From sequence record PQ249397: a DNA stretch of 64,000 nt; one strand, given 5' to 3'. Every line of letters begins with the position of its first letter. Position 1 is the first letter of the stretch. This DNA is from Escherichia phage Pu-Krd-SF3. The notes beneath the pieces are model-generated. The model saw only the letters and a list, made by a program, of their open reading frames with translations. It was not told the origin of the DNA and searched no databases. This document shows positions 1,137 through 1,935 of this stretch, piece by piece. A program made the translations under genes and the position numbers.

Positions 1137-1223
1137 GGGGAGTTATCCCGTAGAGGTAGCGGTGTGGACTGTAAATCCATTGTCATTGCGACTCGGGTGG
1201 TTCGACTCCATCACTCCCCACCA
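1137..1223 (+). tRNA. type-II tRNA-like gene with GUA anticodon (tRNA-Tyr-like); D-arm non-canonical
   Basis: Perfect 7-bp acceptor ggggagt/actcccc, anticodon stem-loop gtgga-cTGTAAa-tccat, long variable arm resembling E. coli tRNA-Tyr, T-arm ggtgg-ttcgact-ccatc, CCA encoded. Not one of the eight tRNAs I recall for T4. Confidence 0.55.
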
Positions 1224-1269
1224 ATTTATGACTCGTCGTGAGACGCTCAGTTCTTTATTAAGGACTGAT

Positions 1270-1935
1270 ATGCATTTTTATCTTTATAAAATAACAAATA
1301 AAATTAATAATAAAATTTATATTGGTGTGCATTCTACCGAAAATTTAGATGATGGATATATGGGTTCTGGTAAATTATTAAAAAGAGCCCAAGACAGGTA
1401 TGGTATAGAAAATTTTTCTAAAGAAATATTAGAATATTTTGATGATAAAGAATCTATGCTTGAAGCCGAGAAAAATATTGTCACAGAAGAGTTTTTAAAT
1501 AGACCAGATGTGTATAATTTAAAACTTGGCGGTGAAGGCGGATGGGATCATATAAATATTCCTGAGATGCTAAATCAGAAGAAAGACGCTAGTTTAAAAG
1601 GAGCTAAATCGTTTAAGTCACGTTTTAAAAATGATATTTTACTTCAAGAAAAATATCGTCAAAATGGTTCAAATGTATTTAAACGTTTATGGTCAACTCC
1701 TGAATACAAGGAAAAATTTTTAAATAATAGCAGATTTTTAAATAAGCATCATACTCTTGAAACTATTAATAAAATGAAAGAAATTCACGCTAAAAATAAT
1801 CACCAGAAAGGTGAAAAGAATTCCCAATTTGGTATGATGTGGATTCATTCATTAGATGAAAAAGTTTCTAAACGTATTAAGAAAACTGACCCAATTCCAG
1901 AAGGATGGTTTAAAGGTCGAAAAATGAAATTTTAA
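1270..1935 (+). CDS. segB: GIY-YIG homing endonuclease (SegB-like) embedded in the tRNA cluster
   Basis: N-terminal YLYKITNK…IYIGVHS GIY-YIG motif; ATG at 1270 preceded by aagga; ORF-track upstream extension overlaps the tRNA-Tyr-like gene and is rejected. Confidence 0.8.
   Translation: MHFYLYKITNKINNKIYIGVHSTENLDDGYMGSGKLLKRAQDRYGIENFSKEILEYFDDKESMLEAEKNIVTEEFLNRPDVYNLKLGGEGGWDHINIPEMLNQKKDASLKGAKSFKSRFKNDILLQEKYRQNGSNVFKRLWSTPEYKEKFLNNSRFLNKHHTLETINKMKEIHAKNNHQKGEKNSQFGMMWIHSLDEKVSKRIKKTDPIPEGWFKGRKMKF

Follow-up and report, generated by a model that had tools for sequence, protein, structure and literature searches.

A tRNA-Tyr(GUA) gene adjoining the homing endonuclease gene segB in the tRNA cluster of Escherichia phage Pu-Krd-SF3

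It has already been published that T-even phages have a tRNA-Tyr, that this tRNA is active, and that it is functionally linked to the homing endonuclease SegB. The gene was described in T2L by Brok-Volchanskaya et al. (NAR 2008, PMC2330249), and the tRNA-Tyr of T6 was detected by northern blot (PMC13096335). According to Chihara et al. (Nat Commun 2026, PMC13096335), Septu cleaves tRNA-Tyr in its variable arm; the cut falls at C48/A49 of the host tRNA and at C48 of the T6 tRNA. Overexpression of tRNA-Tyr alone rescues T6 plating from Septu, and T6 with the tRNA-rich region deleted shows a specifically higher Septu sensitivity (PMC13096335). The T6 tRNA-Tyr appears to be relatively unstable and is itself cut by Septu (PMC13096335), so that protection would act via dosage and not via resistance. 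Escape mutants of T6 carry tandem 718-bp repeats of tRNA-Tyr and a C-terminally truncated segB, and the formation of these repeats requires catalytically active SegB together with UvsX/UvsY (PMC13096335). T4, which possesses segB without the Tyr gene, reportedly cannot escape Septu (PMC13096335). In T5, tRNA-Tyr restores infection against retron-Eco7 (PtuAB) (PMC11555353, PMC12673091).

SegB cuts the 3' (T-arm) part of tRNA genes, tRNA-Tyr included, and its core motif was defined as GGTTCRANTCC (PMC2330249). The site that SegB prefers lies within the tRNA-Asn gene of T2L, and the region around it is replaced in homing (PMC2330249). RAWTSGAAC is the SegB MEME motif of 2026 (PMC13096335).

Position and structure of the tRNA-Tyr gene

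The DNA analyzed here, referred to as the window, is a stretch of 64,000 nt from Escherichia phage Pu-Krd-SF3 (PQ249397), a Tequatrovirus. Bases 500–2400 match Escherichia phage Pu-Krd-SF4 (PQ759884) at 100% identity and many T-even phages at 93–98%. A total of nine tRNA genes, all on the + strand, were called by ARAGORN (Gln, Leu, Gly, Pro, Ser, Thr, a tRNA with a CAU anticodon, Tyr, and Arg), and the seven upstream tRNAs and the tRNA-Arg are exactly those listed in an earlier note made from the sequence alone. That note had also pointed to an 87-nt element with a GUA anticodon inside the cluster, for which it proposed a check with ARAGORN; the program calls it as an 87-nt tRNA-Tyr with anticodon GTA (Table 1). 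The homologous gene is annotated as tRNA-Tyr in the records of PQ759884 and T6. The occurrence of a tRNA-Tyr(GUA) gene next to segB is confirmed.

Table 1. Coordinates of the tRNA-Tyr gene, its structural parts, and neighboring features in the 64-kb window
Feature	Position	Strand	Evidence or remark
Seven tRNA genes (Gln, Leu, Gly, Pro, Ser, Thr, CAU tRNA)	555..1127	+	ARAGORN, Rfam
tRNA-Tyr(GUA) gene, class II	1137..1223	+	ARAGORN, Rfam tRNA 30.2 bits, family model R1 112.9 bits, structure parse, covariation
Acceptor stem GGGGAGU/ACUCCCC, 7 bp, perfect	1137-1143 with 1213-1219	+	
Connector UAUC, 4 nt	1144-1147	+	
D-stem CCGU/GCGG	1148-1151 with 1159-1162	+	
D-loop, 7 nt	1152-1158	+	
Anticodon stem, 5 bp	1164-1168 with 1176-1180	+	
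Anticodon GUA	1171-1173	+	loop CUGUAAA
Variable arm, 15 nt	1181-1195	+	3-bp stem GUC/GAC, 1182-1184 with 1190-1192
C48 of tRNA-Tyr, within GUC-AUUGC-GAC variable arm	1184	+	homologous to T6 Septu cleavage site; putative mapping
T-stem, 5 bp	1196-1200 with 1208-1212	+	
SegB core motif GGTTCRANTCC, GGTTCGACTCC	1199..1209	+	T-arm of tRNA-Tyr
T-loop UUCGACU	1201-1207	+	
Discriminator A	1220	+	
Encoded CCA	1221-1223	+	
AATTTGG, exact 7-nt direct repeat	1132..1138 and 1826-1832 (inside segB)	+	694-bp spacing
Spacer and segB leader, 46 nt	1224..1269	+	hairpin 1247-1268, region z-score -2.54
segB, free-standing GIY-YIG homing endonuclease, 221 aa	1270..1935	+	Pfam PF01541, identity to T6/T4 SegB
tRNA-Arg(UCU), T4 type	1941..2015	+	5 nt past segB stop; right-hand side of segB cassette

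Most of the structure read in the earlier note was recovered, including the perfect acceptor stem, the long variable arm, and the good T-arm. [quoted passage not shown] The cloverleaf has 7 bp in the acceptor stem and 5 bp each in the anticodon stem, which closes a loop of 7 nt, and the T-stem, which closes a UUCGAnU loop; the covariation described below supports its helices. Compared with the bacterial TyrRS identity set (PMC9976931), the gene contains the tyrosine identity elements G1-C72, A73, the GUA anticodon, and a long variable arm. Its variable arm is identical to that of T6, on which basis the C48 cleaved by Septu in T6 is placed provisionally on the window. Besides the anticodon, its loop, G1-C72, and A73, the gene shares with tyrU a class II arm with a GUC/GAC stem. 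Positions 8 to 26 add up to the same overall length in both tRNAs. In tyrU, however, this stretch consists of 2 nt of connector, a D-stem of 3 bp (CCC/GGG), and a D-loop of 11 nt; in the window tRNA-Tyr, the connector has 4 nt, the D-stem 4 bp, and the loop 7 nt, and the variable region is 2 nt longer.

The CAU tRNA at 1053-1127 is very unlike the tRNA-Ile(CAU) found at the same position in T4 and T6, and is identical over the aligned part to a PE37 gene annotated as tRNA-Met. Judged by this likeness, it is probably a tRNA-Met of the T2L type, and the tRNA cluster therefore reads as a mosaic of T2-like and T4/T6-like segments.

The T4 tRNA cluster is one primary transcript (PMC2330249). Scans of bases 1–3000 of the window for sigma-70 promoters and terminators gave results not above the shuffled expectation. 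A near-identical pair of hairpins with T-runs, AGCCCCGAC(C/A)GAAAGGUUGGGGCUUUUU, is present at 2331-2356 and 2866-2891, the former following the tRNA/stable-RNA cluster and the latter following the ORF at 2398-2859; the terminator-like scan reported only the site at 2866-2891. This ORF and the adjacent ORF at 2978-3544 encode the same N-terminal peptide (MKTYAQFL... and MKTYAEFL...) and have similar upstream sequences, which suggests a local duplication. Downstream of tRNA-Arg, a T-arm-like sequence, GGTTCGAATCC, which is also a SegB core motif, occurs at 2259-2269. It is located near the 3' end of a region (~2016-2280) homologous to T4 rnaC (species 1 RNA), in which no Rfam family was matched.

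The tRNA-Tyr family and its extended connector

With the generic Rfam tRNA model (RF00005), the Tyr gene scores 30.2 bits, 1.2 bits over the gathering cut-off of 29, and this match needs an acceptor register shifted by 2 nt. A competing, sub-threshold match to tRNA-Sec reaches 34.4 bits, and the eight neighboring tRNAs score 48.8–75.4 bits with the tRNA model. The earlier note held that a covariance-model score below the threshold, together with no detected processed RNA, would speak against a tRNA; the gene passes the threshold narrowly. The single-sequence minimum free energy fold of 1137-1223 is not a cloverleaf (z-score -0.91), a measure that is uninformative for tRNAs.

The reason for the low score was sought among relatives of the gene. 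These include T6, Murica (Vequintavirus), F4M1E (Certrevirus), PNJ1809-36 (Phapecoctavirus), KP179 (Jiaodavirus), an O157 typing phage (Felixounavirus), the T5-like ABTNLsp4 and BF23, a plasmid from E. coli genomes, and IMG/VR contigs. A plain MAFFT alignment of 13 relatives misplaced the gap in members with an 8-nt D-loop and was replaced by an explicit parse and a model-guided alignment. In the explicit parse, all 13 sequences have a connector of 4 or 5 variable bases after the acceptor stem (UAUC, UAGU, UAUU, UAGA, UAUUU, or UAAUU), and the Tyr gene of the window does not have the canonical connector of 2 nt (positions 8-9). Following the connector, the D-stem CCGU/GCGG forms 4/4 pairs, and BF23/T5 shows a compensatory C-G to U-A double change (CUGU/GCAG). 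When the canonical 2-nt-connector register is imposed, at least one mismatch arises in each of the 13 parsed sequences. This register, which is the one drawn by ARAGORN, was rejected: only 67.9% of its D-stem pairs form, compared with 100% in the shifted register, and one pair is left unpaired in 14/14 members.

A covariance model, R1, was built with the shifted D-stem. It assigns 82.8–114 bits to 17 family members and 112.9 bits to the Tyr gene of the window, whereas all other tRNAs in the searched loci score at most 63.1 bits. When 14 distinct members are aligned with the model as guide, standard pairs are formed in 99.4% of the stem cells, and 15 of the 24 pairs are changed on both sides. 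All five helices are kept, with per-helix pairing of 97.6–100%, and the shifted D-stem is paired completely in every member (14/14). None of 500 shuffles reached the observed covariation values, and pairing drops to 44–58% when the 3' partners are slid by 1–3 columns. The 14-member alignment was fitted to the model structure and hence leans towards it; the slid controls and the independent parse agree with it. The score in the family model and the strong covariation place the element far beyond chance and show that the gene is under structural selection.

Low scores with generic models are a property of this tRNA-Tyr family, because the conserved 4-5-nt connector shifts the D-stem by 2 nt. All seven relatives tested with Rfam score 39 bits or less or give only a sub-threshold tRNA-Sec match, and the BF23/T5 tRNA-Tyr has no Rfam match at an E of 0.01 or below, whereas the neighboring tRNAs of these relatives mostly reach 45–75 bits. 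ARAGORN misses all three family members with 5-nt connectors. Thus, the irregular D-arm remarked on in the earlier note is real insofar as a C-C mismatch appears in the canonical register, but it is not a sign of decay: in the shifted register the D-stem pairs fully across the family, and the irregularity is a conserved architecture. The same connector departure occurs in experimentally active relatives and so provides no argument against tRNA function.

The family is retained in Tequatro-, Vequinta-, Certre-, Phapecocta-, Jiaoda-, Felixouna-, and Tequintaviruses and in E. coli plasmids. About 410 phage records carry the gene at an identity of at least 95%, and only 23 of them also cover most of the segB-type spacer; in most of the Tequatroviruses that carry the gene, Tyr adjoins tRNA-Asn and not segB. 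Of 5426 complete E. coli genomes, 269 also have a tRNA-Tyr with 94.3% identity on plasmids, many of them ~110 kb in size, where its neighbors are tRNA-Asn, tRNA-Thr, and tRNA-Ser; one example is NZ_CP024264 (16133-16219). These plasmids look like phage-plasmids with a small tRNA array. No blastn match to the tRNA-Tyr at an E of 0.01 or below was found in E. coli chromosomes.

The connector is conserved in the tRNA-Tyr of T-even, T5-like, FelixO1-like, and rV5-like phages and of phage-like plasmids. No published description of an extended connector in phage tRNA-Tyr was found in the searchable literature, outside which lie the subscription-only T5 tRNA papers of the 1980s. It seems rather unlikely that the 4-5-nt connector and the D-stem shifted by two bases represent a functional adaptation rather than a neutral quirk. 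If they do, the connector could alter the geometry of the elbow or core, so that some tRNA-targeting nucleases or modification enzymes of the host would treat the phage tRNA-Tyr differently from the host's own.

segB, its insertion site, and the Tyr-segB unit

The source record labels the ORF between the Tyr and Arg genes (ATG at 1270, stop at 1933-1935) a homing endonuclease; in T6 and T4, it is annotated as segB. Its product matches Pfam PF01541 with 26.1 bits against a cut-off of 22.6, in keeping with the GIY-YIG endonuclease named in the earlier note, and its start lies 46 nt past the CCA, as was stated there. The protein is identical to T6 SegB over 221/221 residues and to T4 SegB over 209/221. 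Residues Y17 and G19, whose replacement (Y17A/G19A) renders SegB catalytically dead (PMC13096335), are both kept in the sequence ...KIYIGV.... A longer ORF of 266 aa from TTG 1135 reads through tRNA-Tyr and was dismissed as an artefact.

In the segB leader, a predicted 9-bp hairpin (UCAGUUCUU/AAGGACUGA, 1247-1268) would bury the Shine-Dalgarno sequence AAGGA, one base 5' of the ATG. The leader of T4 segB differs in sequence from that of the window, yet a similar occluding hairpin has been proposed for it, the T4 segB mRNA being part of the tRNA precursor transcript (PMC2330249). Against a chance expectation of 0.16, the window has eight matches to the core motif GGTTCRANTCC, and every one of them lies within 606-2269. 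RAWTSGAAC is not enriched in the 64-kb window (nine matches versus 6.1 expected) and has no match inside the Tyr gene.

The tRNA cluster of PE37, which is without segB, has the order ...Met, Tyr, Asn, Arg, and its tRNA-Tyr is intact and identical to that of the window. The window follows PE37 from 9 nt upstream of Tyr, where the aligned stretch starts, to ~5 nt past the CCA, and diverges beyond. The CAU tRNA upstream, which is annotated as Met in PE37/T2L-type clusters, is likewise identical. In clusters of this type, tRNA-Asn comes immediately after Tyr, and a different tRNA-Arg comes next, whereas in the window the place of tRNA-Asn is taken by the spacer and segB, followed by a tRNA-Arg of the T4 type and not of the PE37 type. 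The presence of the spacer and segB where tRNA-Asn would be expected fits the published SegB site and the replacement that accompanies homing (PMC2330249). segB is absent at the homologous PE37 locus, and its target motifs are located in the T-arms of the neighboring tRNAs. The Tyr gene thus reads, from this comparison, as an intact flanking gene and not as insertion debris. The suggestion of the earlier note that it marks the insertion site holds in that its 3' end coincides with the left edge of the segB cassette, but the pseudo-tRNA to which the suggestion was attached does not. T4 has segB (95% identical protein), tRNA-Arg, and other common tRNAs at the same positions but is without tRNA-Tyr, and an unrelated 41-nt leader joins its tRNA-Ile to segB.

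The closest relative of the whole arrangement is T6, in which the gene order and the 46-nt spacer are the same; in the window, tRNA-Tyr likewise lies immediately upstream of segB and is near-identical in sequence. The T6 tRNA-Tyr is identical at 85/87 positions, and both differences are in stems and keep the pairing: position 1177 takes part in a G-C pair in the window and a G.U pair in T6, while position 1211 takes part in a G.U pair in the window and a G-C pair in T6. Over the 813-nt Tyr-segB unit, five substitutions separate the window from T6. Position 1136 is T in the window and A in T6.

At the 718-bp offset of the T6 repeats, T6 has the pair ATTAATTAG/ATTCATTAG with an 8/9 match and an exact ATTAG run (5), compared with a 7/9 match and a longest exact run of 3 in the window. 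No exact microhomology of at least 6 nt exists at the 718-bp spacing in either the window or T6, only the imperfect 9-mer. Because of the T at 1136, the window has both this weaker microhomology and a new exact 7-mer, AATTTGG, which is repeated inside segB. The AATTTGG repeat could serve as the junction in tandem amplification; since about one such 7-mer match is expected by chance between regions of this size, this is no more than a prediction.

Possible roles of the tRNA-Tyr and comparison with known systems

In all likelihood, the gene encodes a functional phage tRNA-Tyr(GUA) that adds to the tRNA-Tyr pool and replenishes Septu-cut tRNA-Tyr, with a dosage that can be raised via SegB. The Tyr gene is most likely transcribed within the precursor of the tRNA cluster, and its RNA is most likely processed and then charged by the TyrRS of the host. 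The phage tRNA-Tyr would enlarge the tRNA-Tyr pool during infection, which may help a genome rich in Tyr codons, and would replenish the pool when Septu/PtuAB-type defenses cut the variable arm of tRNA-Tyr. SegB would cut DNA within the T-arm sequences of tRNA genes, and recombinational repair of these breaks may generate tandem units of tRNA-Tyr and truncated segB, leading to a higher tRNA-Tyr dosage under defense pressure.

The earlier note had left the choice between a functional supplementary tRNA and a pseudo-tRNA. The former is borne out by the covariation across phage lineages, the near-identity to the expressed T6 tRNA-Tyr, and the TyrRS identity elements. That the element is instead a decaying pseudo-tRNA, a relic of the insertion of the segB cassette with no function at the RNA level, is highly improbable. 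The near-threshold Rfam score with its shifted register, the C-C mismatch in the canonical D-stem, the end of homology with the segB-less allele ~5 nt past the gene, and the fact that T4 does without tRNA-Tyr could all be read in its favor. However, the same gene is intact in the segB-less PE37, its five helices are kept by compensatory changes across distant phage lineages, and its D-arm is fully paired in the shifted register in 14/14 members, the BF23/T5 double change included. Low generic scores are found in every family member, including the active T5-type tRNA-Tyr (PMC11555353), and the T6 homolog, with 98% identity, is expressed and active (PMC13096335). A role mainly at the DNA level, in which the element would serve as a SegB recognition site seeding homing or recombination and the RNA product would be secondary, is quite unlikely, though somewhat less so. 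The T-arm of the gene holds the SegB core motif, the tRNA-Tyr gene of T2L is cut in vitro when the dose of SegB is higher (PMC2330249), and SITE-seq peaks fall within T6 tRNA genes (PMC13096335). Yet the same core motif occurs at seven other sites between 606 and 2269, so that the Tyr site is not special, and the preferred SegB site is in tRNA-Asn and not in Tyr. The MEME motif, neither enriched in the window nor present in the gene, also argues against such a role, and the compensatory changes in stems far from the T-arm indicate selection on RNA structure.

It is possible, with a lower probability than the defense-related function set out above, that the main value of a functional tRNA-Tyr is codon supply for an AT-rich, Tyr-rich genome, the anti-defense effect and the proximity of segB being incidental. 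Tyr codons amount to 43.0 per 1000 (TAT 33.9, TAC 9.1) in the 71 ORFs of the window, compared with roughly 28 per 1000 in E. coli K-12. Because the rate in the window is above the E. coli figure, codon supply is a plausible additional benefit of the tRNA-Tyr. The prevalence of tRNA-Asn instead of segB beside Tyr among Tequatroviruses also favors a codon-related value, and PMC13096335 cites codon compensation as the view that prevails. Against it as the main value stand the T6 phenotypes, in which deletion of the tRNA region specifically raises Septu sensitivity and tRNA-Tyr by itself restores plating (PMC13096335), and the recurrence of the tRNA-Tyr family among phages that are unrelated and among phage-like plasmids, a pattern consistent with Tyr in particular having been selected repeatedly. 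The codon supply and anti-defense roles are not mutually exclusive.

By analogy with T6, the phage of the window would be expected to express its tRNA-Tyr, to be rescued by it from Septu, and to amplify it in a SegB-dependent manner. Tyrosine charging and translational use of the phage tRNA-Tyr may likewise be presumed, with indirect support from the phenotypic rescue in T6 and T5 (PMC13096335, PMC11555353). As the whole family scores low owing to its conserved non-standard connector, a near-threshold covariance score of a phage tRNA does not imply a pseudogene, and some members of this defense-relevant family are missed by standard tRNA finders. The tRNA-Tyr of the T5/BF23/SP15 type belongs to the same family, with 89 bits in model R1, the same 4-nt connector architecture, and, in BF23/T5, a variable arm (UGUCAUUGCGACUCG) identical to that of the window. 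The T5/BF23-type tRNA-Tyr differs from the window gene in having ~85% identity over the aligned part and an 8-nt D-loop, and in BF23 the first pair is G1.U72. Furthermore, the T5-type tRNA-Tyr relies for its expression on a strong promoter of its own and not on amplification. The window represents another natural isolate with the tRNA-Tyr/segB module known from T6 and extends the catalog of such phages rather than opening a new question.
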